DNA of 64,000 nt from positions 8,391,539 through 8,455,538 of the forward strand of contig OZ316896.1 of the NCBI GenBank assembly GCA_973895155.1. The letters run 5' to 3'. Both the position numbers and the translations under genes were made by a program. This DNA is from Marsupella aquatica (lineage: Eukaryota; Plantae; Marchantiophyta). Under the pieces are notes generated by a model. It made no database searches and was not told where the DNA came from. It saw nothing but the letters and a program-made list of their open reading frames with translations. Shown here piece after piece: positions 22,555 through 64,000 of this stretch (position 1 is its first letter; every line of letters begins with the position of its first letter).

Positions 22555-23490
22555 AGTCGGGTGTCCCTTCTATTGAACACCCAAATCAAATCCATGACTT
22601 TTGATGAAATCAGGTCCCCCACTTAAGCACTCACCTGCTCCATAAAGCACCCCCAAAATCCCTCTTTTAGCCCGGGCTCTCAACATGGCCGTAATGTTGA
22701 GGCTTTATGCTTTGGAAATATTTATCATAAAACTCCCTCTCAAAACTCCTCAAAAAAGGTTCTTCTCCTCAAAACCAAAAAAACTAGAAACCACTTGGGA
22801 GAGTTCATTGAACCACAAGGAATGATAAGAATGATAATAAATTAAAATGAAAAGGAACCTACATGTGTATATACACCCTTAGGGGTCTCACTATATAGAG
22901 GCCTCCCTATCACCTGTGATATTTTTAGGCCTCAAACCCCCTAAAATGTAAGATTTAAATAAATTTTTAAAAACCCTGTAAAGTTAAAATATTCTTAGAA
23001 TGTTCCAAAATTTTGATTAGAAAGACCCTCATGTTCTTATTAGTCTTGAAATTGGATTTAAAAGACTCTATTGTTATTCTGAGAAAATTTGTAAGTCTTC
23101 CCTTAGAACCAATAAAATGACCCTATCTTTCATTGAACGTGATGTGTCATTTTTGTGGAAGTGAAACCCTCGAGTATACACCTAGAATTTTGGCTTATCT
23201 AGTACATTCACATAACCAGGAGATAAGTTAAGGTCCGTTTCCATGGACATTGACTGTGTCACACATTCTCATAGTGGAAAATAACATAGTGGCTGCAAAG
23301 GGGAAGCTTTTGAAGGGGTTTGCAAAAGCTGTGTAGTTTGATCATGTGGACAGCACTTGCTAAATTCCTCTAGTTGTTGCCTCCATGGTATTCGAGGTAT
23401 ACATGCATTGTGCCATGTGGACCCACAGACTGACCTCCTTAAATAGGGACCCTCTTTCCCCATGACAGTTACAGCTGTTTTCATTTGAAA

Positions 23491-24935: not shown

Positions 24936-25132
24936 ATGGGTGTAAAGTGCTCAGTCCCAATGTCGGAGTCCGGCCAAGGGGTTTAAGTTCAGTTGACACA
25001 AGTGCTCACACACCAAAATAACTTGGATATTCCAGTTTAAAGCACATTGAATAGTTGAAATTCTATGGGATGATGTGGATTACTCACATGATCTTCAGAT
25101 TTACCCAGGTCTCTGATTGGACCTGCTATCAG

Positions 25133-25366
25133 ACCATTTTGTTCTAAATCCATGCCATCCGAGTCATAATATACATATTCATAGATTCTATCTGAGCTTA
25201 TAAATCTTGGCCATTTTGTTCTACATCCATGCCATCAGAGTCATAATTATATACATATTCATAGATTCTACATGAGCCTTTAAACCTTGACCATTTTGTT
25301 CTAAATCCATGCCATCCAAGTCATACTATAGATATTCATAGATTCTATATGAGCTTATAAATCTTG
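25133..25366. repeat. ~78-bp tandem repeat, 3 copies (unrelated to the preceding array)
   Basis: CCATTTTGTTCTAAATCCATGCCATC..AGTCATA..ATACATATTCATAGATTCTA..TGAGC.T.TAAA.CTTG three times. Confidence 0.9.
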
Positions 25367-28083: not shown

Positions 28084-28716
28084 ATGGGGTTTCCTGGAGC
28101 GTACGGGATTGTGTTTCCACTGGCGGTATTCAAAATAGCGGTGACCTTGATGTGGATGAAGCAGGTTTGCGTATCGATCACGAACTTTGCGTTGGGCCGG
28201 GGGTGGGACAATCCGTCTGTTAGAATATTTCCAAACATTCCACTCTATTGGGCTGAATCTCAGGCTCAGGAAGCCACTTATGGTATCATATGTGCTCTAA
28301 ACGACGGGATGCTGGCTGCTGAGATCAGGGCGTCTATTCCAGTGGTCCGATTCAGAGACATATCTAACAAGAAGCTCCCGAGTAGTGACGAGGAGGAGGA
28401 GCCTCAGTGTTCGGTCTGCCTCTGTGATTTCACCGCAGAAGATAACGTTCGGCAACCCCCTCGCTGCTCTCATGTTTTCCACAAAGATTGCTTGGATCGG
28501 TGGACGGCGCATCATCAAACGTCTTGCCCTCTCTGTCGGTCTAGCCTCACCCCTGAGTGGCTAGAACAGGAAGATGCGCAGACGACGACACGACGCTCGT
28601 CGATTCGCAGCAGCAACAGCAGGGTCCGGACGACTGGCTTCCCGCATTTCGCAGACCAAGTGGTACAACTAGCGCTGCGAAGGGACGCAGCGGGCTGGGC
28701 CGTGGATACTACTTGA
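28084..28716 (+). CDS. RING-H2 (C3H2C3) E3 ubiquitin ligase, RHA/XERICO-like, intronless CDS, 210 aa
   Basis: ATG at 28084 (MGFPGAYG); hydrophobic N-terminus; CSVCLCDF-x11-CSHVFHKDCLDRW-x7-CPLCR RING-H2 motif; GC-rich leader upstream from ~26.9 kb. Confidence 0.9.
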   Translation: MGFPGAYGIVFPLAVFKIAVTLMWMKQVCVSITNFALGRGWDNPSVRIFPNIPLYWAESQAQEATYGIICALNDGMLAAEIRASIPVVRFRDISNKKLPSSDEEEEPQCSVCLCDFTAEDNVRQPPRCSHVFHKDCLDRWTAHHQTSCPLCRSSLTPEWLEQEDAQTTTRRSSIRSSNSRVRTTGFPHFADQVVQLALRRDAAGWAVDTT

Positions 28717-38170: not shown

Positions 38171-38680
38171 ATGGGAACGCGAGCATTTGGCTTGGCGAGG
38201 TCTGGAGGACCTCTTGCCCGGAAGGCATTTTGCAGTCCCTGGACTGCTGCCTCTTTTCTGGTGCGAAGATCCTACAGTATATACGAGGATTTCAATGTGT
38301 TCTCCGGGGCTGGCACAGGACGAGTGATCATTGACGAGTATGACGAGACAGGATTCAAAGCAAATGGTGTCAGGCATGAAGGTTCAATGATCTGCCTCGG
38401 CAAACTGGTCTTCTCATGGACTCCCCGTTCGTTTGCGGAGATCACACCCGAGAGTTTGTCACTCTTTCAGCTAATGCGGCCTGCTCCTGAAATCTTGGTG
38501 GTCGGATGTGGCAACAGGATAGGCAGAGTAAGCCCAGAAGTCAGAAACTTTTTAAAGTCCAATGGCATCAAAGTCGAAGCAGTGGACACGAGAAATGCTG
38601 CCTCAACTTTCAATATCTTGAACGAAGAGGGTCGGCAAGTAGCAGTAGCTATGTTGCCGTACGGATCGAGTAACCCTTGA
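38171..38680 (+). CDS. NDUFAF3: NADH dehydrogenase assembly factor 3 (Mth938/DUF498 domain), 169 aa
   Basis: Mitochondrial-type presequence, IDEYDETGFKANGV, PEILVVGCG, GIKVEAVDTRNAASTFNILNEEGRQVAVAMLP motifs. Confidence 0.93.
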   Translation: MGTRAFGLARSGGPLARKAFCSPWTAASFLVRRSYSIYEDFNVFSGAGTGRVIIDEYDETGFKANGVRHEGSMICLGKLVFSWTPRSFAEITPESLSLFQLMRPAPEILVVGCGNRIGRVSPEVRNFLKSNGIKVEAVDTRNAASTFNILNEEGRQVAVAMLPYGSSNP

Positions 38681-43813: not shown

Positions 43814-44552
43814 GGATTGTTCCGAAACTATGGTCCAGCAGGATTTCCAAGTTTGTGGTTTCTCTCCAAAATGATAATCAACCGGTTGGGAGCAGTATAA
43901 TTACCGTTTACACAGGTTTCTTCTTAGACGAATGTGTCTGATTTGTTCATAATATTGAAGGCAAAGACTACAAAAGAGCCTGATTCAAGTTTTAGTGAAA
44001 TCATTTGGCTGTCAAGCAAATCAATTAGACAAAGTTTGCCAATATCTAAAGTCAACATCAATCCACGTGCAACATTTAGTAGTTCATAGATGACAGAACA
44101 GTAGGCAAGTCCTCAGCCTTTCGTAAACACAAGAGATGGATTTTGTTGATTTTTGTGACCTCCTTGACACACTTAGAAATACCCTGGCCACTCAGCGCAA
44201 TGACTTTCCTGCCAACCTCGTGCTCCCTCTGATTTGCAACCACCTCCCGCCTTAATTAAGCAATCACTCTTCATGTGTAAAACGCTGGTGGATTCAGGTC
44301 ATCAACTTGTCCCTATCCCAAACTTTAAATTATTGGGGTATATAAGTAGTATTATGGCTACCTAATGAATTGCTGATGTCGTTTATCCAAAATCCATAAG
44401 AGGGTCAGTTAGTGACATTAAGATAACCTTTAGGAGAAATTCAATTAGTACCTCAAACATGTCTAAAGGCCTCCTCCTTTGCTAGTCCCAATTCTCTAAA
44501 GGCCTCCTTTGGTCCAATGGCCCCAGAAAAGCCAGCTTAAAATAGGGCAGCT

Positions 44553-44911
44553 TGTCATGCCAAGGGACAGTGCCTCTTGTGCACATCGGCATGTCCTTCG
44601 CATGTCCGCTAGGTATGTAGTTAGGGCTAGTATACTACTTGAGTTAGTGTCATGTTCTTATAGCGAGTCTGGGTCGTTCTTGAAACAAAGGTGTTTGTTA
44701 GTGTGATGCCTAGACCCGGTCCTATTTAGGGCATGTTTTTCTTTGTCATTTTTTAGTTCTTCTTGAATCGTTGTTGACAGAGCTCAGACAGTGCTCGTCG
44801 GTTCCGTACACGGGATTCACACAGTGATTCGTTAGATGCTCCCGGCCGATCTTGGCATCCCGTCGGTTTTCAATTCGATTTCAGTACACTTGTTTCTCTT
44901 ACGCCTTTTAT
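44553..44911 (+). repeat. Terminal repeat A1 (359 bp)
   Basis: Matches 53759-54117 with 13 mismatches by manual count, all transitions, no indels. Confidence 0.97.
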
Positions 44912-44923
44912 TCAAGAAGAACT
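44910..44923 (+). promoter_or_regulatory. Self-priming primer-binding site (Tf1-like)
   Basis: ATTCAAGAAGAACT is the exact reverse complement of AGTTCTTCTTGAAT at 44755-44768 inside A1; no tRNA-type TGG PBS is present; TATTTA lies ~30 bp upstream of 44755. Confidence 0.75.
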
Positions 44924-46153
44924 CGTCGAGATAGCAGTGAGGGGAAGAAGATTACTTGTGGCGGTTTCGACAATTTCTGGTGAAATCATTGCAATTTCTT
45001 CTACGAATATCGGAGCGACGAGTTGAACGTTATGGATTTATGTTGTTATGTGTATACTTAAGTGTATACACATATCAATGCTCCCGGGGGGGTCCGGAGT
45101 TCCTTTTCTGGTTGCACCCGCGACTCCTTTGCTCCTTACTGTTGCTGCCGATTGCTGCCGACCTGTTGTTGCCGACTGCTCGACTGCTTTTGGGGTCATT
45201 TTTGCATTCCCGGCCACAGCTGCAGGCGAGTTTGCCTCGGCCACCTCGCGACTGCATAGGACCGAGCCCCTATTACATCCTTACGTTCTCGGCCATGTGC
45301 CTCCCCTCGGCACTTCTCCCCTTCCCGGCCATTTTCGTTTCATCTCGTTTTCCGATGCAGTTGCAGCTCCCTGCCGTTGCAATTAAAACAGGGGAGAGGG
45401 AGTGAGAGTCGAGGGCACGAGGCCCTATGGAGAATAAAGGAGGGTGAGGGGAGGTGAAGCGAGAGTTGGGCACGAAGCCCCTATACAGCATTAAAGGAGG
45501 ATAGCACAAGCAAAAGCAAAGAGGAGGAGGAGCGACAGCGAGTGAAAGGGCACCAAGCCCTAGGTAGCATTAAGTGGGGAGAAGCCCTGCCACAAGCATG
45601 CGAGGGAGAAGGCACACGGCCCCATTCAGCATTAACAAGGGGGAGGGGAGTTAAGTCGACTCCCTTCTCGGGAGTGCTCCTGCCAGGGCACGAGCCCAAA
45701 TTATTACATTGCAGGAGAGGAGGGGGAGTTCGTAGTCCCTCCATGGGGGCCCGATGCTTTTCTTTTTGCCATCTCTTTCCTTTCGCACTTGCCACGCTGT
45801 GTCTTGCCTTTTCCTCCTTACGCCTTTTGTGCTCCGCAGCCTATATGTACATAGGGCATCGTGCCCTCCCGTTTCTTTCCCTCGCCGGCCATAGAGACTC
45901 CTCAACTTTTCCATAGCCGTCCGACTAGCGCTGCATAGGGCCGTGTGCCACGAGTGTGGTCCGGCTGCAATTTCCGGGGCCACAATGGGCCCCAAATGTG
46001 TATACACTTAAGAGGGGCCTGGTTCACATATTCGACTACCGCTGCATAAGGCCCATATTTCCCCAATTTCTTTGCTGCCGCCACATGTCATCTACATAAG
46101 GTTAAGGGCCCGGCATACACATCAGACCGTCGATCCGGCAAGCACAACACAGC

Positions 46154-48189
46154 ATGTCAGCAGAGGAGCCCAGAGGTAGCAGCATATCGCCACCGACACC
46201 CAGGTACCATTTACGGAGTGATCCACGACCATTGGTGCCAATTTCATTGGAGTCTCGGCAATTTCGACGACGCCAGCAAACAGCAGTAGCACCCACACCA
46301 CGCAATCCTTCTGCTACATTTGGCGGTCGCTTTCCCACTACCCCGAAGCCTGCTATCGCTTCTCTACCCTTTACCCCTTCTGCATCCGTGGTTGTTCCTG
46401 CTTCACCGACATACAGCATGGACGCCAGCCACTCATCTGGCCGCATTGAACGCTTCAGCGGGCGGCCAGGCACTGTTTCTTTACGTGAGTTCAAATCCAC
46501 TTTCTACACTGTTGTTTACGAATTGGAGTTGAAGTACGGCAGCAATTTCACAAATGCTTTTGCATTTAAGCAGCTAGCCAGGTATGTGCACCATGAGGCT
46601 TTGGATGTGTATGAGCAGCACTCTCAACGGCTGCTTGCTGTCACACAATTGCCTAACCCTGCCTATGCCAGTGCAATTGCGGCTGCCTCACAATTGGCAT
46701 TACAGAATGCCATTGCAGCCCATGTTGCTGCTCTTGCCACTTCCCCTCCTACTCCAGTTCCTACCACTGCGCCAGTTACTCCCACTATCTTGGCACAGGC
46801 TACATCAAGCATTTCTCCCACCATTGATTCCCCTGCCTTTGCTGATCCAGTGGCTGAATTTTTCCAGGTTCTCGAATTGGAATTCCCCATCAAGAGTGCT
46901 GACAAAATCATGCAGTTGGCCACCTTTGTGAGGCAGCGCAATGAAACCTTGAAGATGATGTATCGCCGGCTTCTCAAGCTGAAGGAGGACACCCAGAGCA
47001 TCACTGACCTGGAAGCTGCTCATCGTTATCTTCGCGCATTGGAGGGCACACCAGCTCTCCATTCGCAAGTGTTGCAGCAAGTATTCTCAGAGTTTGGAGA
47101 CAGCTACACCCTGCTCAATGTCTATGACACTGCTGAGAAATTTGAGTTGGCCCATGCACATTATGAGGCCAGTATTGCACGTCCACCGCGATCCAGGTAC
47201 CAGACTGCTGCCCCTATACTGGCCACCCCTTCCCGTGTGCCACAGTATGGTTCCAAGACCAAGCCAGTCCATGCTGTTTTCATGCTGCCATCTTGCAACT
47301 ACTGTGGTAACCCAATCACAAGGCTAATGAATGTGATATTGTTGTTGAGGACCTTTCTTGTGATTTTTGCGGGAAAGTGGGTCACTTGGAGGCAGTTTGT
47401 TTTGCCAAATTCCCAGAGAGGAAGCAGCTACGACAACAGGCCACTCATCCTGCTCCTGTTTCCACTCCCCCACCAGCTAGGAGGGCTCCTACTACATCAA
47501 CTGCTCCTCCTTCCAGTGGCAAAGCATCTAGTACCAACAAACCGCCCAAGCAGCAACAGAAGCAACCAGCTCAGAAGGAGGCTCACAACGCACAGGCAAC
47601 TCAACTCCAGTCTCTGACTCATGAGGTTGAGTCCCTACGTGCCCAACTTGCCAACATCAAAGGCAAGTCAACTGCCTCTGCTGGTCCTTCTCAACCGGCT
47701 GGTCACGTGCAACCCATCGCTGGCCCAGGCACCACTGACAGTTCAACACCTCTACCCCGCTCTTTCTATGGCTTGCCATTTGATGCTCATATGGGTGAGT
47801 GTGTGCTGTCCTCTGCTCCACAGCCTGGTCTTACAGCAGAATTTTCAGATTCATTCTGCCCTTCCTATTTTGCTTACCAGCACGCCAGTGCTGCCTCCCG
47901 TATTGCTCCCACACGCCGCATTGTACAGGCTGATGGTCTTGCTGCCGGTCCTATGACTAGAGCCAGGGGAGCTCGGGCTGTCATGCCCCAATCTTTTCAG
48001 CCACTCACACTTGCTGAAGAGCGCACCTTGTTGGCGAGGGGGGAGGGAGCTGCAGCTACATCCATTCCACCACCAGGTGCTGCTGACATTTCACAGGGAG
48101 TTGTTTCTCCTGAGCTGCTTGAGCATTTCACCTCTGGTATGGCACAAAGGATTCTTACAACTCCACTTTTCAGTTGCCATGATTTATAG
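46154..48189 (+). pseudogene. Retrotransposon Gag with two CCHC zinc knuckles plus linker (frameshifted)
   Basis: Capsid-like region RIERFSGRPG...QRNETLKMMYRRL. A 1-bp deletion near 47314 breaks CNYCGNP(N)HKANEC, followed by CDFCGKVGHLEAVC. The in-frame TAG at 48187-48189 continues into the 48250 ORF. Confidence 0.85.
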
Positions 48190-48549
48190 CTGGATGCTAG
48201 AGCTGTCCTTAGGGCGCTAGAGGGTTCACTGCATTCTTTATCAGCCCCTGTGACACTGGTTTTGGAGGTCCAATCTCATGTACATATTGGACCTTCTTCT
48301 TCTCCATTACATGCTTCCATTGGTTTGGCTATCCCAGTACCAATTTCCAGTGGTAGCGATGACAGTATTGCTGCAGATTGTGTGACCAGAGTTACACTAG
48401 ATTCTGGTCATGTTGCTCCATCTTTCCTGACTATGTTGTTGAGTGGAAAGACCGTGGATACTAACTCCCTTCACAAGGTACCTCATCATCTGCCAAAAGT
48501 GGTGCCTAGCGACAGGACTTCAGTTTCCACCACTATTGCCATTGTTGAC

Positions 48550-48900
48550 AACAGGAATTCAGCGGTCAAGTTGGAGGGTCACACTCCTCAGGTGGTCATG
48601 CTAGACACAGGCGCTCAACCAGTGATATTGGGCATTCAGTTTGCCAAGAAGATGGGACTGTTGACTGATCATTTACAGCAATCCAGATGGCATATTCGGA
48701 CTGCTAGTGGCACTATGGAGGATGTGCTGGGTGAGAGTTCTACTTTACTCACTCTCACTTTTAATGGAGGTACAGATCAGGAACTGCATTTCCCAGTCAG
48801 ATGTTTGGTTACCAATGTCACTACGTATGATGTGCTCATTGGCCAGGAGGTTTTGTTCCCACCAGGTTTTACCATTGACAACTGGCATGAGCATGCATAC
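48550..48900 (+). CDS. Retroviral-type aspartic protease domain of the polyprotein
   Basis: VMLDTGAQPVILG (DTG at 48604-48612), IRTASG flap, YDVLIGQEVL motif. Confidence 0.9.
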
Positions 48901-49266
48901 TACAGAGTTGATTGGCATACTGATGGCTCACACTTGGGCTACATTCCACTTGATTTGCATGGTGCCCATACACCTATGGCTCACCACTGTGTGTTGAAAG
49001 CAGTGCACACAGCTACCTATGTCAACCACCCATTGCAGGATTGGATTGAGGAGGATGACGATGAGGTGGCTGCTGCACATGCTGTTGCACGTATAGCAGC
49101 ACTTTCCAGCAACGTGAATCATCAACCAGAGGTGGTACAACAGCTCCAAGCAGCCCATGGGCCTTTGGTGGCTGCATTGCGCAAGTTTGAAGACCTTGGG
49201 CAGCACAATGGACAGCCAATAGCCCCAATCTTGAGCGCACCAGTTACATGGACTCCTGCTCCGGAT

Positions 49267-50200
49267 GGCCTTACATTGCTTGAGCTTTTTGGTGGCATTT
49301 CTACAGGCCTGGAAGCTCTCCTACAGTCCGACATGGTGGTGAAGCAGTACATCTACATGGACATTGATCCAGGTGCAAGGCAAGTGGTTGAATCCTGTCT
49401 GCTGGAATTTTCAGAACGATTTCCCCAACAGTTTCCACACAATGCATGGAAGTCTGCATTTTCTTTCTTCCCTCCAGATATCCAGCTTGTCCAGCACCGA
49501 CACTTAACCCTTCTTGGTTCCCTCAATTTGATCATAGCTGGTTGGGAATGCCAAGGGTTTTCAGCTGCTGGTCATGGTGCTGGATTGCATGACTCTCGTT
49601 CTAGCCTTTTCACAACATTGGTTCAGATTCTCATCTGGGCTCAATCCCTTTATCCTGCTGTTGGTTATATCATTGAGAATACTCCATCTCAGTTTGACCA
49701 GCGTCCACAGGTCAAAGAGGATTTTAGTGTGGTCCAGCACTACTTGGGACCACCCCTTCTCATTGATGCAGTGCACTGTGGTTCTTATGCACATTGTCTT
49801 CGTAACTTTTGGACTAACCTTGCACCACCTTCCTTGCTGGAGCTAGCTTTTCACCACACATCCAGGGATACTAACCTCACAGTGGACCAGATTTTGGATC
49901 CTGACAGTTCTTGCCAACCAGTTACCCGGCAAGAGCCAGCACCTTGGTATCCAGCCAATACCATTGGACAGCCCCGTGCTGCTTGGCCTACATTTGTATC
50001 CTTTCCAGGTGCACATGCCTTTCAGGGTGATGGTCCTGGCCTGGTTTATCGATATTCTACCGGTACATGGGATGAACCTAGTCCTGAGGAGAGAGAACAG
50101 GCTATGGGCTTCCAATCCGGTACTACAGGTCACACCCAGATCACCAGGCTGGCCAGGAATGCTTTACTTGGCAGGGTAATGGATCTTAATGCTCTCACTT
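49267..50200 (+). CDS. C5-cytosine DNA methyltransferase domain embedded in the polyprotein
   Basis: Motif I LLELFGGISTG, II YMDID, IV IIAGWECQGFSAAG, V RSSLF, VI IIENTP, VIII AHCLRNFWTNL, IX PEEREQAMGF, X RNALLGRVMD, in canonical order and in frame with the protease. Confidence 0.9.
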
Positions 50201-50606
50201 GGCTTCTGGTCACTTGCATCCTTTTTCAGATGTACATTCATCCAGCATCTGGAGTTCCAGCTCTACCACTCCATGGTGCTTCTACATGGCATCCCGACCA
50301 GGTGCACTTACCTCTATTCAACACTCACCGCTTCAGTCCAAGTGTTGGGGGGGGAGGAGGTCCCTTGTAACGTGGCTGACAATATTTCTGAGTTTCATGG
50401 TGTGGACCAACTCAGATCAGCAGGTACAACAGGCCTTGGAGAGACCTCGTCACCTTATCAGCAGCATGCTAGCAGCTTGGACAGTGGAGGTTGGCACTTC
50501 TGGCTCTTCAAGCACGAGTACATCAGGTCCTATTCCTAGTGTTGCCAACTACACATTCATCATGGGCAACCACTTGAGTAAAAGATAGAAGGACCAGCTG
50601 CTAAAT

Positions 50607-53540
50607 TTGCTCCTCAAGCATGAGAACGTGTTTGCTTTCTCTATGAAGGACTTGGGTAAGTGCAAGACTATGCAGTTCTCCATTGAGTTGGCTGATGAAA
50701 CACCTATCTTCAGGCGGAGACACCGTTTGAGTAAGCATGAGTGGCAGCTGGTGGATGAGAGGTGCCAAGAGCTCTATGAAGCTGGTCTTATTCAGCCATC
50801 TACATCAGATTTTGCAGCAGCTACAGTGATGCCAACAAAGAAGGATTCCAGTGGATTGTGGACAGAGAAACGCATGTGTGGGGACTACAGGCCACTGAAC
50901 CTGGTCACACCCCAGGACAGGTACCCCATGCCACGGCCAGAGGAGCTATTTGATAGCATTGGAGACTCAGACATCTTCACTCTTGTGGATCTAAGGCAAG
51001 GCTTCAACCAGATTTTGCTGCTTGCAAAGGATCGCAAGAAAACAGCTTTCCATGGTAGTAACCAACTATGGGAGTGGTTGGTGATGCCATTTGGCTTGCA
51101 GAATGCGCCCATATTCTTTCAAAGAGTCATGGACCAGGTTCTTCAAGGTGCTGAGTTTCTGAAATGCTACATTGATGATGTGTTGGTCCACAGCAAAGGA
51201 TTTGACCAGCATCTACTTGACCTTGAGGAGCTATTCATGAGGCTTAAGAAGGTGAACCTAAAGATACACCCCAAGAAGTGTGAATTTGCTGTCAGATCAA
51301 TAGTATACCTTGGGCACCGCATTCTTCCAAATGGAACCATGGCTCACTGGGCCAAGGTAGTATCCATCTTGGAAATGCCCACTCCTACTGATGTTCACAC
51401 TTTGAGGAGTTTTATTGGGTTGTGCAATTACTACCGGATCTACATCAAAGATTTCAACACCATTGCACACCCATTGTATGCTTTGTTGAAAAAGAATGTG
51501 ACTTGGACATGGAGTACAGATGCTGAGGTAGCATTTGCCACTTTGAAGAAGAAGCTCTCAGAATACCCAGTGCTGAGAAGACCTGATTTTAGCAAGGTCT
51601 TTGTGCTCCACACAGATTGGAGTGCCCTTGGGATTGGTGCCATTCTAGGCCAACATGATGAGGAAGGTAAGGAGTACGTCATTGCCTATGCATCCAGGAG
51701 CAACAATCAGGCCGAGAGTCATTATTCTTCTTATGAGGGTGAATGCCTTGCTGTTGTGTGGGCTGTCATACATTACAGGCCCTACCTCTATGGGACCAGG
51801 TTTACTCTCTACACCGACCACCAGCCCTTGAAGTGGTTGATGACTAACGACAAGCTTACTGGCAAGCTTGCTCGTTGGGCACTCATCCTCCAGGAGTATG
51901 ACTTTGAGGTAATTCATAGGCCTGGTTTGACACATCAGAATGCTGACACTATGTCCCGCAGCCCTTTGATTACCTCTGATGATTCCTCAGATGCACGGCA
52001 AGATTTTGACCAGGTTTCCATCCTACCTACATTTCATGCATCTACCTATCTTGCTTTGCTGCCATGCTATGTTGTTGACCAACCTATGGTGGACATATGG
52101 GAGGACAACGACACTCTGAGATTTCTGCAGCATGGGGAGTACCCCACCCATGTTACTACTGCCCAGAGAGACCGAATTCAGCAAAGGTCCAAGTGCTACT
52201 TGTGGAAGGGAGATCATCTTGTGCGCTGCCTGCCAGACAGGGAAGTGGTGGTTCCACCCATTCATGAGAGGGTTGGCCTTATCCGTAAGGTACATTCTGA
52301 GCTTGGTCATTTTGGTGTTAAGAGGACTTATAGCCTCTTGGTCCCCCATTATCATTGGAGAGGCATGCATGGCCAGGTTCGAGATGTTATTGCCCAGTGT
52401 GAGCAGTGTGATAGGGTAAGGACTTCTTTCACATCTCGGCAACCCACACTTCATCCACTCCCTATTCAGGGCATGTTTTATCGTTGGTCATGTGATTTGG
52501 CTGGAGAATTACCCCTCACATTTTGGGGTAATCTCTACATCATGATCATGATAGAGCATTTCTCCAAGTGGATAGAACTTGTGGCATTGCCGGATAAGAC
52601 CTCCCGTAGCACCAGCCAGGCATTCCTGCAACAAGTTCTCAGCCGCTTTGGAGCTTGTGCAGAATGTCTCACTGACCAGGGCTCAGAGTTTAGAGGAGAG
52701 TTCTAGGAGCTGCTTGATCAGGCCCTCATTGATCATCGTCGGACATCACGAGATCACCCACAGGCAGATGGCTTGGTAGAGCGCATGGTTCAGACATGCA
52801 AGAAGGGCCTCCGGAAGATCTGCCTCACCAAAAACAAGGAGGATTGGGACCTGGCCTTACCCTACATTGCCATGGGGTACAAGATGTCCAGACATGCATC
52901 ACTGTCTAACTTTTCTCCCTACTTCTTGTTGTTTAGTCGTCACCCAGTTCCACCTTCTGCTATTGCTGCTCACATGCTTCAGGTGGTAGACTTGGATTCA
53001 GCTGTGATTTGGTCTGATGTGATCTCTGAGAGGGCTGCCCTATTCAGGAGGGTTATGCCCATGGCCATGGAGAATTTGGCCATTGCACAGCACAGGGACA
53101 CACTGCGTTATGCACACACACGAGGGGGCACTTTTCAGCCCAAGGTCAGGAAGTTTGATGTGGGAGATTTTGTGTACTTGCAGCGGCAAGCTAACGACAC
53201 CCTGGACACCTCTACTAGTCGTACTATTCTCAGGGTTAAAGTTATTCGACCGTCTGGAGTGCTAGAGTTACAAGGGGCAGATGGGCGCACAATTGCTAAC
53301 AATGCCAAGAATTGCGCCCCTTGTCATCTGCCTAACCTGGATCCCACCATTGTGACTTCTACTTGGATTCCACCTGTGGACTACCCTTGCAAAGTGTGTT
53401 TGCGAATTGATGATGCTTACCAGATGCTGCTGTGTGACAATTGCAATGGAGGGTACCATCTTTTCTGCCTTCGGCCTGAACTTACCCAGGTGCCAGAAGG
53501 GTTATGGTTTTGCCCTTCCTATGCTCCACGTGCTACCTGA
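50607..53540 (+). pseudogene. Pol: reverse transcriptase, RNase H, DDE integrase and C-terminal PHD finger (in-frame TAG at 52704-52706)
   Basis: RT: RMCGDYRPLN, DLRQGFNQI, MPFGLQNAP, YIDD (51168-51179). RH: HTDWS, EGECLAVVWA, TDHQPL, NADTMSR. IN: HSELGH...CEQC, WSCDLAG, TDQGSEF, DGLVERM. PHD: CKVC...CDNC...HLFC...CPSY (53388-53522). Confidence 0.95.
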
Positions 53541-53573
53541 ATTTTCTTCAGCCCTCCTTTTGGCTGTGGTCTG

Positions 53574-53580
53574 GGGGGGG
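53574..53580 (+). promoter_or_regulatory. Candidate polypurine tract
   Basis: G7 run immediately 5' of repeat B1 and ~35 bp after the pol stop codon. Confidence 0.6.
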
Positions 53581-54294
53581 ATACAAAGGTTTACACCTCC
53601 ACTACGTACATACCACTTCATTTGCTTTTTCTTGGCACTTGTGAATGTGATTGGATTTTTTCTATGCATGTTGGTTGCTAGCAGCTTGCACATATGCATT
53701 GCCGGTGACTTGTATGTTTTCGATACACTATGGCTACGATACTATATGTCACGACAGCTGTCATGCTGAGGGACAGTGCCTCTTGTGCACATCGGCATGT
53801 CCCTCGCATGCCCGCTAGGTATGTAGTTAGGGCTAGTATACTACTTGAGTTAGTGTCATGTTCTTATAGCGAGTCTGGGCCGTTCTTGAAGCAAAGGTGT
53901 TTGTTAGTGTGATGCCTGGACCCGGTCCTACTTAGGGCATGTTTTTCTTTGCCATTTTTCAGTTCTTCTTGAATCGCTGTTGACAGAGCTCAGACAGTGC
54001 TCGTCGGTTCCGTACACGGGATTCACACAGTGATTCGTTAGATGCTCCCGGCCGATCTTGGCATCCCGCCGGTTTTCAATTCGATTTTAGTACACTTGTT
54101 TCTCTTACGCCTTTTATCATACAGAGGTTTACACCGCCACTACGTACATACCACTTCATTTGTTTTTTCTTGGCACTTGTGAATGTGATTGGACTTTTTC
54201 TATGCATGTTGGTTGCTAGCAGGTTGCACATATGCATTGCCGATGACTTGTATGTTTTCGATACACTATGGCTACGATACTATATGTCACGACA
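53581..54294 (+). repeat. 3' terminal repeat block B1-gc-A2-c-B2
   Basis: B1 53581-53756 and B2 54119-54294 (176 bp, 6 mismatches by manual count); A2 53759-54117; the B1/A2 junction is the palindrome GACA-GC-TGTC. Confidence 0.97.
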
Positions 54295-56744
54295 AGCTGA
54301 CATTCATCCATACCTTTGAGAATTTATATGTGGATTGACATGATGGCGAGGGTGAAGCCCCTATGTGTTAGGATAGATAACATTTGAATATTGAGGTGAT
54401 TTCCTTTAGATCAGGTAGAAGTTGTAAGTAAATATCATTCTTCACAAATTGTTTTCTCCAAAGAATTGTTTGTCGCTATGTATTTAGTTTTACATCTTTA
54501 TTTGTAGTATCAAAATGGACACCATGACATCTCTAAGACTTGTGCCACATAGCACACGAGTACATTGACAGAAACCCTAACATTCTTACTAGCCTGCCCC
54601 CCAGACTAACCCGATATTACTAACGAGCCCCCCAAATTAAATTATTATCAACCCGTCCCACATTTCGTATTCATGTGAATATTAACTCATATATGGGTTC
54701 CTATTGCAATGTGGCAAGTCACTATTGGCTAGCCGCCACCCCCACGGCCCCCCTTCATCTTCCCAGTTACATTTTCTTGAGTAAAAATGAGGGCCAAAAA
54801 TGTTGGGTTTTTGTGAGGGGAGTGTGGAGCAAAAAACAATGTATTTTTTGCCCCTCCTGGACCTGCAACTGTGCTAAGGGGAAGGGGGGCCCAAGGGGGT
54901 GGCCACAGGTTAGGCTAGCCAATAGTGACTTGCCACATGGCAACTGGGAATCCCTATACAAGAATACTGACCCCCATATTGACCTGAATACAAAACGGGG
55001 GACACATTGATAATTAATTCTGTTTGGGAGACAGAATAGTAATATTGGGTAGTTTGGGGACATGTGACAAAAAGCTGTTTTATTTCTATCATAAAGCAAT
55101 GGCTCTGACAATGCATCTCTATTTTGGCATACTTAAGATTTTACCATCAATCAATGTTTATGCAACCTAGACAAAAGTGAAATTCCACCAAAATTTATAA
55201 AACAGGGAAAAACAAAGTACAATGAAAGAGAAAAAGAGGGCAAAGAGTACAAACACCCAACAAGAAAAAATAAATCTAGAGTGTAAAAAACAGCTTAGTG
55301 TTGAAAAGCATACACCCAAAAAAAAATTGATTCCAGGAGTTAGACTTCATCTGAAATTGCAGTTACAAAGTTCCCTCTTTACCCTACTAGCCTGACTGCC
55401 CATGCTTTTCTCAGGCCACAGTTGCCCTTCCCACGTCTTCCCTAGCCTATATTTTGCCACCCGAGAGTCACAGGCTCCACTGTAGACCTCAGGCCCCCAA
55501 GAGTGTAGGTGTCTATTGCTAATTATTAGTTCCATTTTATCCCCAAGTCATAACAAGTCATAATGTTAAGTTAGACTTCCAAAACAAAGGTCTCTGTACC
55601 AACACCGGCCCCCACATTGCCGTGCCTAACATTTACTGCACAAGTAACAAAATGAATTTGACTCAAGTAGGTGTAGAAACGAGGAAACCATTACCTGGTC
55701 GTAATAGTGAATTCCAAGCAAAAAAAGACACGCGGCAGGGTTGGTGATCTCCATTATTAAAGTGGGTTCTTTTGGGCCTTGAAACTTGAAAGGGTGCAAT
55801 GTATTAAAATAAACTTTTCCATGGGGTACAGCGCAGGGCAAGGCCTACATGAGGAACACCAACCACAACGTCGGTCTTCCTTTGAATTAATATCATCACA
55901 CACCATAAATTATTGTCGGTAGTCTTCCGGCTCGCTCTTTCCCAGAATTGGATTTTTGGGGGTAGTTTTGTGGGGATGCTATTAACGTTAGGCACCACAA
56001 TGATAATAAAGTTTCCTTTGAGACAAAAAGAATCAAATGAAGCCAAGATCCACCATCATGTTAGACACAGTGCTCCTCTGGACCACATGCTGGTGTTCCA
56101 TGGGAGTTTGGGGCTTATTACTTCATGTTTATAAGTCCTAAAATAATTTTAGTTTTGCATCTGTAAGGCAACTGGTGAAGGAGGAGAAACAAAAAAACAC
56201 AAATCCTAATATCTGAGATTAACGCAATGAGAATTAGTCAAACAGAACTTACCCCTCCGCCAACTGTGATGACAAACTCATCCAAAATGGTCAAAAATAT
56301 CACTCTCACTTATAGATTCCTCTAGCAGGTCCCCATAACTATAAAATGTTTGAATTTATTAATATCAAGTTACTAAAATTAAACTGAAATTTTGCCAAAT
56401 GTGGTCCATGGGGTTTGGTAGACCCTCTCGTGATCCATGTTGGCTTCCAATTCCAAAAAGGACAGAAAAGAAGTTGCACGGCAAAGGTATACAACCAATT
56501 AAAGTTATGCCATTACACGTTAAAAAAAACAGCAAACGAAAGGACCAGATCTCCAGAATGACACCCGGCACATGGACCCGGAAATATACGTCCAGGCCCA
56601 AAGTCATAGAACAAGATACGTAAATCCTGTCAGGAGAAGAGGTTACCGGTGTGTAACCATTTTTACAAGGGCCTGCTATAGTCATAATCTGGTGTCCTGA
56701 AAAGTTGAGCCGGTAACCTCTTTCCGGGCAGGAGTTACGTACGC

Positions 56745-57202: not shown

Positions 57203-58526
57203 CCCACAGTTTCGCGTCATCCAGCGGTTCACAAGGCCTCCTGCTCATCCAGAGTGTTAGGAGGTAACCAATCCGAAGCGCCTCCTGCGATCTGGCCCAT
57301 GGCCTGTATCCAATCGGCAAAGCCCACGTCACGGCGTGGTGTCCGGTAACGTGGGTTGGATGGTGGGTGGGTCGCATGAGTGCGGGGATGTGAGGGGGGA
57401 GGGAGAGAGGCAATCGAAGGGCAGCGCTGCTTCGCGACCTTTCCAGATCTTGAAAGGAACCCTACGTGTGTGCTCCGCGCCTGGTCCCACTTTTATTCGT
57501 CTTCCCTTTCTACGAACGAACTAGCGAGATATCCAACAGGAGAGAGGTATTGCTCTTCGTGCTGCAACGAACACAACAACACACGACTGTAGTGCTCTTG
57601 TCTGGCGACCTACCTAATCTCTGCTGTCTGCCGCCATTAAGCTCGCGTCGTGCTCGCTCTGTCGATCACATTGAACTTCTTCCTCCCGCTTTTGAGCCAG
57701 TCAGTCAGCCAAGGCGTCTCTCTCTCACTCTCTCTCTCCCGGTGCTTTCCTTTTTTGGGTGACACAGTCGTGCTGCGGGTGCAAGGTTGTTTCCCTTGCG
57801 TCGTCGGTCAGTCAGACAATATTATTGAATCCCTTCCTCTTGCATTTCAGCGTTTCAGCCAAGGCTTCGCTCACGCTCCCGGTGCCGCGTCATCATAGTC
57901 GTGCGAGATTGTTTTCCTGGCTGCCGGTTAGTCGGACACGTTTCTCTTGGCTTTTCGGTCTCTGTGGGACACGTTAATTGGAGCGACTCCTTGACACCAT
58001 CGATTGATTGATCGAAGGACGCGGAAGATCGGTGTGGAGCGTGGTTTCCTTCTCGACGCCGAGTTTGTGTTCGACTAGTATAAGAAAGTGCTGGTTACGT
58101 CTGGAGGAGTTATTTTGTAATCTAAGAAGTTTGAGTTCGCGCTTACACCGTGCCTCTTATTTCCTTCGCGGAGTATCGTACCCTTTCGATCCTTGAACTA
58201 CTGCGCCGGCGCTTGCGTTTCGTCGTCCACAAGACAAGATAAGATAACCCTCTGGTTGGCGGTGTCCAGACCGAAGGCTTCGATCATTTCCCTGACATTC
58301 ACAAGCTTCCTCGGCCCGTGATACGGTGTTCTTGTAAAGTGTTAGGAAGCCCGGTTTTGGTTATTGTTTCTCGGCGGCCTACCTTCTGTTCGACCCTTCT
58401 AGAAGCGCTCTCTTCTGTTCTGATCTATTTCGAGCGACTCGATCGAGGCGTCCGCAGGCGGTAACGTACCGGTCGTTATATCTATTTTGGTCGAAGAATA
58501 GAACCTGTTTTTGCGATAATCTGAAG

Positions 58527-59366
58527 ATGGTTGCCACGGATAAAGAAGTTGGTCTAAATATGGGCATGTCAGGTCGTGGAAAGTATCTGCCAATGAAGGC
58601 CAAGAATAAGTGGAGGCGTAGGAAGTTCTCAAGAAGGAATGAGCCTATGTGGAATCAGGGTCCTCTGCTGATGCATAATGGTGCATATGAACCCCCGAGA
58701 CTTACAGAGTTGCAGCAGCAAAACCGCCTGAAGACCAGAAGATTCTACCCAAGGAAATTGCGCGCACCTCGCGCTCCCCGTAACACCTCGTCCTTTATCA
58801 TGCGTGCCAAGAGGCCGGGAGGCTTGGCTTCACTTGTCTCTCCTGCTACCCCTGCAATCCTCCCGACTCCCGTCCTTTCTCCCGCTCCTCGATACAGAGA
58901 GGGTCTCGTAGACGAGGTTAACAAAGAGTGGGGTGTAGACGGTTATGGTTCTATGAACGGTTTGATCCGGTTGCGGTCTGTTGAAGAAGGCGAAAGAGAT
59001 GAGTTTGGCGGTACCGGTGAGAGTGAAAGTGAACTTGAGCAAGACACCCACGCTGAGTCTGTACAGCAGCTTGAGCAGCGGATAGATCATGGCTTAAGCC
59101 GTTTCGAGATTGTCTATCCGTCTCCGTCCGCTGCTAATGACAATAAACAGTCCACGGAGGTCCGCATGGAGGAGCTTGAGAATCATATTGCTCAGCTAGA
59201 AGATGAGAATCTGTCTCTGAAAGAAAATGTTTACTTGTTGCAGCAGGAATTATCAGAGGCACGGAGGCGACTACTTGTGCAAGACGCGGGAGATTATGGA
59301 TCTGATGAGAACGCCGGGGTCTGTCAAGAAAGAAGTGGTGGAGATGTATCTTGTGCACAAAGCTAG
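58527..59366 (+). CDS. PRL1-interacting factor A-like protein, intronless CDS, 279 aa
   Basis: Plant family motifs APRNTSSFIMRAKRPGGLASLVSP, TPAILPTPVLSP, KEWGVDGYGSMNGLIRLR, LSRFEIVYP and a C-terminal coiled coil; CT-rich leader from ~57.6 kb. Confidence 0.85.
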   Translation: MVATDKEVGLNMGMSGRGKYLPMKAKNKWRRRKFSRRNEPMWNQGPLLMHNGAYEPPRLTELQQQNRLKTRRFYPRKLRAPRAPRNTSSFIMRAKRPGGLASLVSPATPAILPTPVLSPAPRYREGLVDEVNKEWGVDGYGSMNGLIRLRSVEEGERDEFGGTGESESELEQDTHAESVQQLEQRIDHGLSRFEIVYPSPSAANDNKQSTEVRMEELENHIAQLEDENLSLKENVYLLQQELSEARRRLLVQDAGDYGSDENAGVCQERSGGDVSCAQS

Positions 59367-61279
59367 ATCATTTCTTTCTTTGCTTGCTGTGCCATTTATG
59401 TCTGTTTGTGTGTGAAGGTCAGCTGAAGCAACGATGGTGGTGCGGTGCCTGCGCAACGCGCGCGCTTCGCTCGAGTCAGATATGTTTGTTCACGTTCGCT
59501 GAACATCCATTTCCGACGTGAGTCTCACTGCCTTCTATGTACCCGGCTTTTGTGAGAGTACTACTGCCTTGTGATAACTTGTAGAAGAAAGCTTAATTCG
59601 TCTCTCTTTTCTCTCAAGGTCATGAGTGGAGCCTCCTTGGCATATGTATTCACAGGGCAAGACGGTCTACGCAGCTTGGAGGCTGTGTAGTGTTTTCTGG
59701 CGATGGGCTCTCATGCGGTAAGGACTTTACCCTTTCGTAGGTGTAAGGATGCTTGACATGACCGCCGTCCGTAAGATGTAATATGTCCTCGTAAGAGAGG
59801 TTGTTCATCCGTGAACGAATGTCGCTTTAAGTGGCTTCCACATTCTCTAATTTAAGTTTCACTTGTACATTGGAGTAGGATGTAGGATAGTCATGCAACC
59901 CTTTCTGCTGGGACATAATCTGGTGTCACAGCTAGGGTCGATACTCATCAGGTCAGGATAGTTCAATTTTGCAGTCTAGGCACACAGTCGGCTCCATTGC
60001 TTCCCGCGGACCAGGTATTTAGGGTTGTAGATGTCAAACCACTACCGTGGTATTACGAATATACTGTACACAAAATGAGAAATTTGCTTTTGCACTCGCC
60101 GTGTATAAAATTTTGTGATCACATGTTTATCAATGAGATGTTATGTTATTTAGCTCATTTGCTCCACTCTCTGAAGTATATGTCTCTGTATCAGAGCGCA
60201 ATGCGCTGCGATATGCACACAAAGGGCAAGGTGGGTAGCCTTATTGGCGCAGATACGTTTGCTGAAGTGTCGATTGCTTTCGTTGGGATCTTGGGCTCCA
60301 CTGTCTTTCCACTACGATTTCGTGTTTGTTTTGTATGGTGTCCCCGAAGTTAATCGGTTTCCGTAGATTATGTTTATGTTTGCTGTCCAGGTTGCACTCC
60401 TGGTCGCAGGGACTGAAGTGCATCTTGCCGGGTTCGGCAGCTGTGTATCAGTTTCATCTCTGAATCAAATGGTGCGTTTGGTTTGTGTGCCTGAGCATGT
60501 CACGCAGAGAACGTATTGGTTGGGTGGTTATTTGTCTACAATCGTAATAATACTTCGACCGGATTTCAGGACGAATGTTCTGGTGTTGCCTTCGGATTAG
60601 ATGTGTTGTCAAAAATGGATTAGCTGGTTTCGTTATAACATTGCCTCGTTAAGGTTGGGTTTTGTTCATTGTGGATTAAGTGCGCACATTTGCGCAAGGA
60701 CGTGACCATTCTTTGATGGGCCGAAGCCAAGGGTGTGGGCCTGGTCGTTGTTTTTGACCGAGTGGAGTTGCGACCATCGTGGGAGGCCGAGATCAAGAGA
60801 CTCCTCAGATCGGCAGATACATGGTCCTAACCATTGTCTAGATTGGTTTTTGTCGTTTCCAGTTCCTCCTCGTAGCCGTTCCGAAGTTTGCAGGATTGTT
60901 TTCGTGCATTGCACGTAGGATTGTTTCATACTTTCATGTGTCGTCAGTGTGGATTCCTTCATGTGTCGTCACTTGTCCTGCCATCGTCATCTTTCTGTGA
61001 GTGAACGACACCGTTTCAGGAGTATCTGTCCTCATTTCGCTGCGCGGCCCAGGTAAAAATTTCCCAAGTTGCATTCGACTGTGGTAACGAACAACAAAAG
61101 TACTGACCCGAAATAAAGACTTCTTTCCGGTACTGATAAGCTATGACTGGAGCGAACTACATGACCAATATTTACAGTGTGTCTTGTGGTTTCCTGTCAG
61201 CGGCAGAGTTGCCTCAGCAATCTGGAATGACGCAAAAGAAACGTGGAGCAGTCTGTGTCCTAAGACACAGATAGAATAG

Positions 61280-61368
61280 CCTATTCTACCAACGATAATT
61301 AACTCCCTATTCTACCAACGATAATTAACTCCCTATTCTACCAACGATAATTAATTCCCCATTCTACC
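61280..61368. repeat. 26-bp tandem repeat, ~3.5 copies
   Basis: CCTATTCTACCAACGATAATTAACTC repeated. Confidence 0.9.
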
Positions 61369-64000
61369 ACCGTTAAATCTACCTGTAAGATGGGGGAATT
61401 CATTATCCCAGCCTTTAATTGCGAAGCCTGGAGACGCTCGTCTCTTGTCAAATATTGTAGTATAACGCAAATGGTGGTCGGCTTTTGTAACTCAGGGAAT
61501 AATGATGGTTTCCCAATTAAATCTGCCTGGAAAGTAAACTTGAAAGCGCGTTATTACGCTTGTCAAATCAAGGAGTAAAACGCATATGTTGTTCTAAACC
61601 CTAACCCAAAAAAACACGCCGGAAAAGAAGTAAACTTGAGAGCCCCTTTTTAAGCTTGGCAAATCACGTCTTAACAGGCAGATTGTGGTTGGGCATTTGT
61701 TACTCAAGAAATAATGCTGGTTGTCCGAATAAACCATCCGGAAAAGTGACTTTAGAGCCGCTTTTTTCGGTACAAGAAGATATTGTGTGTGAATAGAGCT
61801 ATCTGAGTAGATAGACGTGTGGAGAAGGGAGCGACGAAATATAACTGAATAGGGTTGTGTCTGAATTGAGCAATCTGAGTAGACGAGTGGAGAAGGGAGA
61901 GAGACAAACGATGAGTGAAACCTCCTGGGAAACCAGACTCTTGACCCCATATTGATGGCGCAGAAGTGGATTGTGTGCTTTGTAATTCTTGTCAGGAAAA
62001 GAAAGGTTATAGGTGTGTAATTTTTTCTACTAGGTGCCACCACTTCTATAACCCTATGCCCAGAAAATTTTGTCTTATAGTCTTTTTTTCTGGGCAGGTA
62101 TTACGTTTGATAATGACTGTTTGGACTGAGGTTGCTATCTGAAACTTGTTCCCAAAAACTTGTTCTCAAAAAGCTCAGAAAGATTTCCTAGCTTATCGTC
62201 ATCAATATTTCTTCACTTTTTGCTCGGAGTCGCCGATCAACATTTCTTCACTTTCTGTTCACAGGGTTACAGACTAGTAACCCGAGACCAATCTGTCATT
62301 ACCCTATACAAGAGTCTAGTCATGAGTGGAGAAGGGTGACAGAAAATATAACAAGAGAGACCCGCCTGGAAATAGTCATGCATAATGCGTCATAATGGCC
62401 CACCATAATGGCCCACCAAGGATCCATTGGTAAACTTTCTGGAGAGGGTCAGTTGTTGCCTGCCATAAACAGGCCTGCAATGATCTGACGCATACATAGA
62501 ATGGGAATTCAGGTGTTGAAACACAATTTGTTGTACAGCCAAGTTTCAATTGTTCCCGACACAGACAGGCTCAAATTGTGTCTCAGATGTGAAAATGGGA
62601 ATGGTGCCTGAGACACAATTTATTGTACTGACCTTGCACATCCCAGAACTTTTACATTGTATCAATATCCCTCTCTTGCAGATCCCAGAAAATTATGACT
62701 CGTAAATGCAACTTTATGAGATGTAATTAGAGTGGCAGATTTAATTTGCCCAAATGCTTGTTTAGTCAACTGTTGCCCTTAACATGTGCACTAGATGAGT
62801 TGAGAGACGAATGAAGAAGGGTAAGAAGATAATGAGAAAGGCTTCTAATAATGAAAAAAAATTCTTCAGATGGAAAGAATTTTTATTGGGAATTCAACAA
62901 CCAAACAGCAACAACGCAGAGGCCCCAACAGTAAGATGACGTAGCATTATATCACCTCATGTACATCTACAGTCTTCAGGGTAGCGTCTCAATAAGTGAT
63001 ATTGTGTAAGAAACCAGTCAAGTACAAGGAACCCATAAAATCTAATATAAGCTGCTGTTAAACTAACTTTTCAATAAGGGGGATTCTACATGAAATTTTA
63101 GTTTTCTGCCTAGTAGGGGTTATATTTTTTGCCTGGTAAGGTTTTCATTCTTTTATTATTGTTCGGAACTCTTGGGCTCTTTGGTTTTCTTGGAGTTTGG
63201 CCCTTGTCTTTGCCCTATTATTGGGTCTATGGCCTTTGGGATCCACTCACCTGGTTGGCGGTTTTTGTTCTTTGGCAATGATTGATATTCAAGTATACTT
63301 ATGGTTGCCATCAATATCTGATACACACCATCTGTTATACTAAGAGATATTGTTGTTTTTAGGCTGAGTTCCCAGCAGCACAGATAGCTCTGGATAAGCC
63401 TGAATGTATGTGGAACCCAAGAAAATCAATTCCATTTGCTAAACTTCCTATTCTTGAGGGAGAGGTGGGAGAGCACATTGCTCCTCTCTCTCAGGTTTGG
63501 TAGTGCCATGGACTTTATGTAAAAGTCACCCTAATTACACTACACAATACCAAAACTAGCTCCAGTACTAACAAGAAAGTGTCAAGACCCTTTCCCTAAT
63601 GTTGGACATTAATGAAATTCCAATACCTTTCAGTATCCCATAGATGAGAACCTCACCAAAAATCCCCCCAACTTTGATAGCTTATTGCTCTTTGTTATAG
63701 AGAAGGGGAACAGAGCCAAGCAAGCGTAGTGTGCACCTGGGTGTGTTTGACCAAGGTGTGCGACTGCAGGTGGTGGTGCTGCACAGTAGGGTCTGCCCAC
63801 ATCTGGGTAGTGAGCCCATGTGTGCATGCACAAGCTGTGCAGAGCTCTGGCCATGTTCGGCCACAGTAGCTGACCTGGCCTGTTCCTGTTGTTAGTGTGT
63901 CTGTTGATGTGTTTTTGGCACTTAGATGGCAGGAATTGCCACAACAACTCACTGGCCTCCATAGCCAGTACGTTCGCACACTATATTTGTGTGTACAAGC

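Follow-up and report, generated by a model that had tools for sequence, protein, structure and literature searches.

A decayed Ty3/gypsy retrotransposon of the KnitGypsy-Dnmt3 kind, with a DNMT3-like methyltransferase domain, in a land plant

The window (the whole 64,000 nt stretch of DNA that was analysed) contained a Gypsy element of 9.7 kb (44553–54294) with the domain order gag-PR-DNMT-RT-RH-INT-PHD, a decayed member of an already described group of elements, in a host lineage new for that group. Its membership of the KnitGypsy-Dnmt3 family is highly probable. The full reading that we favour, by a modest degree, is that this is a dead KnitGypsy-Dnmt3-type Ty3/gypsy copy whose DNMT likely methylates the element's own cDNA at CG sites before insertion, with insertion predicted to occur via an internal junction. 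DNMT-carrying Gypsy elements have been described from one alga, with the activity and purpose of the enzyme left open in the available part of that account (de Mendoza et al., 2018; PMC5890265). The literature searched, which took in few subscription papers, held no report of a land-plant element of this kind or of an internal-junction mechanism. The lineage range now reaches land plants and Closterium, and a second domain order reaches the chlorophyte Tetradesmus. In a host with apparently many near-identical copies, the question of why a transposon carries its own silencing enzyme becomes testable in plants.

The repeats of the element were laid out as A-ORFs-B-A-B, with the ends TGTCATG and CACGACA (TG..CA). 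The left target site duplication (TSD), AGCT (44549–44552, unstranded; right copy 54295–54298), was of the 4 bp length also seen in relatives. Repeat A1 (44553–44911, +) began with TGTCATG at the left element end and contained the predicted RNA 5′ end and self-primer AGTTCTTCTTGA (44755–44766, +; second site at 53961 in A2), where transcription would start; a self-priming primer-binding site was predicted from complementarity immediately 3′ of A1 (44912–44923, +). The coding part comprised a gag-like region (46418–48189, +) with zinc-knuckle-like Cys/His motifs and 65 and 59 % identity to the homologue P0003, in which no Pfam match lay above the cutoff; an aspartyl protease (LDTGA; 48535–48864, +; PF13975, E 5e-6; PF13650, E 5e-5); a DNMT3-like C5-cytosine methyltransferase with motifs I–X in order (49261–50241, +), recognized by profile, fold and motifs; a DNMT–RT linker (50340–50588, +); RT (YIDD), RNase H and the integrase zinc finger and core (50589–52706, +; PF00078, 5e-28; PF17917, 9e-39; PF17921, 8e-14; PF00665, 2e-10); and the remainder of the integrase with a C-terminal PHD finger (52707–53540, +; finger at 53373–53531, PF00628, 5.5e-11). 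A polypurine tract (PPT) of G8 (53573–53580, +; G-run in 38 of 39 rows) abutted the 5′ side of repeat B1 (53581–53756, +), which ended in CACGACA. B1, a 2 nt spacer and repeat A2 (53759–54117, +) together formed the near-palindrome CACGACA-GC-TGTCATG (53750–53765, unstranded), a predicted internal integrase attachment site. Repeat B2 (54119–54294, +), also ending in CACGACA, formed the right element end, with one extra base (54118) at the A2/B2 joint. A1 and A2 differed at 13 of 359 nt, all transitions, and B1 and B2 at 6 of 176 nt, so that the two pairs must have begun to diverge at roughly the same date.

The coding part was interrupted by three frameshifts (near 47310, 50350 and 50490) and three premature stops (48187–48189, 50586–50588 and 52704–52706); the copy is therefore dead and itself unable to function. 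Two of the frameshifts and one stop broke the linker and separated DNMT from RT, which lie in one ORF in the relatives P0001, P0019 and P0067. The split repeats, the TSD, the PHD finger and the self-priming site are additions to the preliminary description of this DNA. No second retroelement usable as a DNMT-less control was found within the window.

The C5-methyltransferase motifs had been described as lying in order between protease and RT and in frame with the protease, and this was confirmed: ORF 48190–50370 (+) encodes the aspartyl protease and the methyltransferase in one frame, upstream of RT. Numbered by what we take to be the C5-methyltransferase convention, the motifs, all on the + strand, were I (LELFGGISTG, 49279–49308), II (YMDIDP, 49354), IV (IAGWECQGFS, 49534–49563, with the catalytic Cys in GWECQ at 49540–49554), V (49582), VI (YIIENT, 49666), VIII (AHCLRNFW, 49789), IX (EREQAMGF, 50089) and X (LLGRVMD, 50164–50184). 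PF00145, the family to which the domain had been expected to belong, was matched narrowly (22.8 bits against a cutoff of 22, E 7e-5). All six PDB sequences matched by the single sequence were DNMT3A (E 2e-4 to 1e-3), and a profile of 61 homologues matched DNMT3A (4e-26), then DNMT3B/C, DRM (6e-15) and M.HhaI (3e-10). An AlphaFold (AF2) model of the domain had a pLDDT of 96.7 and a pTM of 0.93, and the Foldseek matches listed for it were all DNMT3 (DNMT3A/B/C; TM 0.64–0.73 over the query), with DNMT3A/B best. The nearest Atlas cluster was a PF00145 cluster, mostly Streptophyta (0.97). As modelled, the domain is a DNMT3-like C5-methyltransferase fold. Identity as a plant DRM was rejected, since the motifs run from I to X with no circular permutation and the DRM score was far below that of DNMT3. 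The catalytic domain of mammalian DNMT3A/B, the best fold and profile match, has the same unrearranged motif order, but is only ~20 % identical; the window domain lacks PWWP and ADD and sits within a polyprotein.

Catalytic and SAM residues were near-invariant in the 61 sequences (C97, E139, N140, R179, R181 and G94), and the family keeps the fold and the catalytic residues (Cys of motif IV, Glu of VI, RxR of VIII and FxG of I), with the window copy lacking the first Arg of motif VIII. This position, near-invariant as Arg in the protein alignment and corresponding to the arginine of DNMT3A that touches the flipped base, is Cys in the window copy only (codon 49795–49797). Every contig covering 49795 in all four sequencing runs had C, making the T of the window (TGT) private; the earlier suggestion that HCLR decayed from HRLR by a CGT to TGT change is thus supported. 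The retention of the catalytic Cys in GWECQ likewise stood, and this motif is no defect of the window copy. Among 180 homologues with a DNMT match, drawn from 191 proteins of which some are redundant, the residue before the Cys gave E-C in 91, P-C in 48 and another form in 3 (38 unparsed), so GWECQ is a family norm and its origin by decay of the window copy was rejected. E-C and P-C forms were intermingled across the DNMT tree. The invariance of GWECQ in the 80 metagenome loci considered next is uninformative, because the loci were found with that pattern.

Scanning of metagenomes yielded 424 confirmed relatives, spread over roughly half of the collection, of which the best 80 (56–74 % identity) were kept. 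Because DNMT patterns and score governed the choice, DNMT conservation is overestimated in this set and GWECQ is fixed in it. In the best 80 of the 424 the domain order was the same wherever contigs reached. The flanks of loci L002–L080 contain genes that by their motifs appear to be of land-plant type, so that the host of these loci would be another land plant; a pectate lyase encoded in a flank had no close match among named proteins. No relative was found in viral contigs. One locus (L005) had either a 4 kb duplication within the element or a second copy nested in it (82 %), and another (L030) held two elements arranged tail to tail.

Median dN/dS against the window was 0.146 for DNMT (79 unsaturated of the best 80 of 424 loci), 0.143 for gag, 0.119 for PR, 0.086 for RT, 0.089 for RH and 0.068 for INT, and bootstrap pN/pS of DNMT was 0.25–0.27 in three pairs (95 % limits 0.20–0.34). 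Among close relatives the ratios climbed to 0.3–0.8 in all domains, as expected of decaying copies, and 77 of 81 DNMT copies, the window included, contained stops. On these ratios (DNMT dN/dS ~0.12–0.15) the domain is under purifying selection, in a sample biased to good DNMT scores, and the non-neutral evolution on which the preliminary description had staked its claim was borne out.

A wider protein search gave 239 clusters (50 % identity) at E ≤ 1e-30, with two domain orders, PR-DNMT-RT and RT-RH-DNMT-INT-PHD. Named members with the former order were Klebsormidium nitens GAQ93235.1 and several Closterium proteins. The PR-DNMT part of the window was colinear with GAQ93235.1, which lacks RT (28 % over 574 aa, E 1e-58). 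In a DNMT tree of 165 sequences (rows of at least 230 residues, including eight of the 80 loci; midpoint root, no host DNMT3 outgroup), all 25 sequences labelled PR-DNMT-RT and 15 unlabelled ones formed one clade (SH 0.991), which took in Klebsormidium and Closterium and contained no RT-RH-DNMT-INT sequence. An RT tree of 60 sequences, also with no outgroup, placed its 10 PR-DNMT-RT sequences in a clade at 0.998, and land-plant sequences formed a subclade in both trees. The DNMT tree gives no fixed branching among Klebsormidium, Closterium and land plants, and horizontal transfer is possible; in RT-RH the window element was 83 % identical to that of the other plant host.

The RT-RH-DNMT-INT-PHD order characterized a larger sister group, with 96 of the 165 tree rows so labelled and none of them inside the PR-DNMT-RT clade. 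Its members were P0005, P0006 (Tetradesmus deserticola by source name), P0009, P0042 and P0049–P0189, and by this name the group would extend DNMT3-Gypsy elements into chlorophytes (Tetradesmus deserticola). The C-terminal tails of 14 of 46 long sister-group proteins (e.g. P0042, residues 1800–2041) carry motifs that resemble those of adenine methyltransferases. No adenine-methyltransferase match was obtained with Pfam on these tails; most of their Atlas neighbours (0.93–0.94) had no name, and in two clusters MTS was annotated on 26 % and N6_Mtase on 14 %. Sister-group elements with DNMT3 and a putative second methyltransferase are a lead.

The preliminary description had linked the domain to the elements of de Mendoza et al. 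(2018), and the relationship proved closer than stated, with a shared repeat layout and a shared clade. KnitGypsy-Dnmt3 of Klebsormidium nitens likewise has a Dnmt3-like domain within a Gypsy Pol, A-ORFs-B-A-B repeats and purifying selection (PMC5890265). The features of that family that were found in the window element are an unrearranged, Dnmt3-related DNMT in Pol, PR, RT, RH and a DDE integrase after RH, the A-ORFs-B-A-B layout, a place in the DNMT clade of K. nitens (SH 0.991, midpoint root) and purifying selection (in the biased sample). GAQ93235.1 appears to be the KnitGypsy-Dnmt3 element of that account. The window element differs in its land-plant host, in having GWECQ rather than GFPCQ and in its apparently far higher copy number, and the available part of the K. 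nitens account makes no mention of a TSD, a 2 nt junction, a PPT or self-priming (PMC5890265).

Other retroelements share some of these features. In SymbioDIRS-Dnmt3 the Dnmt3 domain, which methylates CG in yeast, is likewise part of Pol and the repeats are arranged as in the window element, and SymbioLINE-Dnmt is a further retroelement-borne C5-methyltransferase; both differ in having tyrosine recombinase or LINE machinery and no DDE integrase, dinoflagellate hosts and an independent capture of the enzyme (PMC5890265, in part). Membership of DIRS/PAT/Ngaro was rejected on account of the rve integrase and 4 bp TSD, despite the split direct repeats. EpiLTR / DAM-LTR elements are Gypsy-like, with a DNA methyltransferase and a chromatin reader, but their own DNMT is DNMT4-related and accompanied by DAM and a chromodomain; the same source, in its available part, treats streptophyte Gypsy-DNMT3 as distinct and previously described, and names no land-plant host for it (bioRxiv 10.64898/2026.05.21.726589). 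Tf1/Sushi and the bryophyte Tcn1 chromoviruses are Ty3/gypsy elements in which predicted self-priming replaces the tRNA primer site, Tf1-type self-priming having been predicted for bryophyte Tcn1 elements by Neumann et al. (PMC6317226, in part). The window element differs from them in its PHD finger, split repeats and DNMT, and in lacking a chromodomain: its integrase gave no Chromo match at E 0.05, only PHD. Chromovirus identity was rejected for lack of the chromodomain, though the self-priming complementarity is present as a sequence signal.

The host is a land plant, as the preliminary description had supposed, and extends the range of such elements accordingly. A neighbouring NDUFAF3 gene was 89 % identical to that of Calypogeia fissa, 72 % to Marchantia, 64 % to Sphagnum and Ceratodon and at most 61 % to named seed-plant proteins, at similar coverage, which makes a leafy liverwort the likely host. 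In sequencing run X1, flank contigs were identical to the window at a depth of 32–51, and 10,308 contigs fell on a 12 kb stretch, with one 101 nt DNMT contig at a depth of 5362. This suggests about a hundred near-identical copies in the host, as a rough reading of depth and not a copy number, and points to a high-copy family. Coverage of the DNMT bins was about equal to that of the RT bins in runs X1, X2 and X6, so that most copies carry the domain, whose presence in other copies had been at issue in the preliminary description. One X1 contig joined the linker at 50315 directly to B1 at 53581, suggesting internally deleted derivatives. With so many near-identical copies apparently present, unintegrated cDNA, RNA ends and methylation should be directly observable in this host.

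The repeats and their junctions were compared after removal of duplicate insertions (L011, L020, L029, L030, L039, L066, L067, L069, L071, L077 and two of L048/L051/L052). In 13 independent A-B-A-B insertions with both ends, a 4 bp TSD was exact in nine, had one mismatch in three and was absent in one, against a chance of 0.004 per insertion of a match; the elements were therefore inserted by a DDE integrase. The spacer of the CA-nn-TG junction was 2 nt in all 19 independent insertions. Nine of these 19 insertions had a blunt A2/B2 joint and ten an altered one, and the joint also varied among copies in the runs holding the window's family. In one insertion (L019:14767–14800) B2 was cut to its last ~30 bases with the TSD intact, which resembles a deletion at an end-joined junction. 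The self-primer at 44755 in the window was a perfect 14 nt complement to 44910–44923 (0 of 300 shuffles). Of 12 elements compared, six had an exact complement of at least 13 nt (0 of 300 shuffles for each), the best match lay at the homologous place in all 12 with 0–4 mismatches, and two compensatory changes separated the window from its relatives.

Ten independent copies had A-ORFs-B only (L003, L038, L041, L045, L050, L051, L059, L068, L074 and L075); of the five with both ends, three had an exact TSD and one a TSD with one mismatch. Such copies could equally reflect insertion of a one-LTR circle, B1 × B2 recombination or assembly collapse. The mirror layout A-B-A-ORFs-B was found in none of the 30 independent loci with a left flank. 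The A-ORFs-B-A-B order breaks the LTR-ORFs-LTR pattern sought by standard LTR finders, which may explain why such elements have been missed.

A replication scheme can be proposed from this anatomy. The RNA probably begins at the A1 site that pairs with the primer-binding site and primes itself in the style of Tf1. With the PPT before B1 and the primer site after A1, the LTR of reverse transcription would be B-gc-A, and the linear cDNA B-gc-A...B-gc-A. Integrase would then cut after CA on both strands of CACGACA-gc-TGTCATG in the 5′ LTR and insert both half-sites; end-joining of the original cDNA ends, before or after insertion, would yield A-ORFs-B-gc-A-B, and a one-LTR circle would yield A-ORFs-B. 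The A2/B2 joint would thus represent the joined original cDNA ends. We rate this insertion step as somewhat favoured. It suggests use by a DDE integrase of an internal palindromic junction, which in retroviruses is considered a side path; foamy-virus integrase cleaves a palindromic LTR–LTR junction (PMC1180852, in part). A symmetric two-LTR circle predicts the mirror layout about half the time, and its absence from 30 loci weakens the symmetric model and means that the insertion step needs a bias to the 5′ LTR, the source of which, at a guess, could be that the 5′ LTR becomes double-stranded first.

The DNMT lies in Pol beside RT, which would place it in the particle where cDNA is made. Packaged with RT, it would methylate the cDNA, so that new copies would come pre-marked like host transposon DNA, a step to which we give even chances. 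Methylation of cDNA was proposed as the role of the DNMT by de Mendoza et al., who found that related Dnmt3 domains of Symbiodinium retroelements carried out de novo CG methylation in yeast and that the K. nitens domain showed no activity there, a result the authors regarded as inconclusive (PMC5890265, in part). CpG observed/expected was 0.21–0.25 in pol and 0.54–0.69 in the window flanks. As a mark of self-methylation this depletion was rejected, because the flanks of seven relatives were equally depleted (0.16–0.31, with 0.23–0.34 in DNMT). More tentatively, and with considerably less confidence than in the scheme itself, the window element may stand for an ancient group of Gypsy elements of green plants, self-primed and still high-copy in bryophytes, in which the attachment site has shifted into the LTR, one- and two-LTR circle forms are the true integration substrates and cDNA is pre-methylated by the element's own DNMT3; it would then be a land-plant transposon that deposits its own 5mC.

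Two other roles for the enzyme appear improbable to a similar degree. The DNMT might have as its chief target the host chromatin in which the element inserts or that surrounds it, acting together with the PHD-bearing integrase complex, so that the flanks or the new copy are methylated after insertion; the PHD finger would serve as a chromatin tether, and the larger sister architecture does place DNMT between RNase H and integrase, but in the lineage of the window its place is between protease and RT and thus distant from integrase. Alternatively, selection might maintain the domain for something other than catalysis (binding of DNA or SAM, cDNA shielding or blocking of host enzymes), the E-C variants being poor or dead enzymes. 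The missing Pro in front of the catalytic Cys and the inactivity of the K. nitens domain in yeast (PMC5890265) speak for this, but the 61 sequences hardly vary at the catalytic and SAM residues, and the tree does not separate E-C from P-C forms; moreover, GAQ93235.1 itself has GFPCQ, so that the negative result in yeast need not stem from E-C. Pre-insertion methylation of cDNA is our preferred role.

The same role for DNMT could be combined with replication through DIRS/PAT/Ngaro-like repeats, in which RNA would run from A1 into B2, the B1–A2 junction would template circle closure and integrase would open the circle. DIRS-like elements have an identical A-ORFs-B-A-B layout (PMC5890265), and this route yields one permutation only, as fits the absence of mirror forms in 30 loci. 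We nevertheless consider it doubtful, a shade more so than the two roles above: the PPT that abuts B1 and the primer site that abuts A1 are what reverse transcription of B-gc-A as an ordinary LTR would require, the A2/B2 joint differs between insertions (altered in 10 of 19), and the integrase is an rve enzyme that leaves TSDs. The idea that the window copy or its family picked up a piece of a host DNMT3 once, with no selection on it, for which the decay of the copy and the marginal Pfam score might be cited, is largely refuted by the same domain position from Klebsormidium and Closterium to land plants, by dN/dS far below 1 and by the congruence of RT and DNMT clades.

Around the element, host genes, among them NDUFAF3 (PF04430), lay at 4792–5178 (−), 8106–16143 (−), 27952–28716 (+), 38171–38680 (+) and 58338–59366 (+); by their motifs, others are presumably Mn-SOD-like, a SCY1-like kinase and RING-H2, and one is a coiled-coil ORF with no Pfam match above the cutoff. 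Just to the right of the element was a MITE-like repeat (54704–54943) with 31 nt inverted arms (97 %) 178 nt apart and raised contig depth. Degenerate tandem arrays occupied 23422–24934, 25132–25366, 61254–61376 and 19387–20398, with units of ~77 nt, 78 nt, 26 nt and 150–200 nt, and a dispersed 300 nt family occurred at 20661, 21509 and 31279, with inverted copies near 22290–22550.
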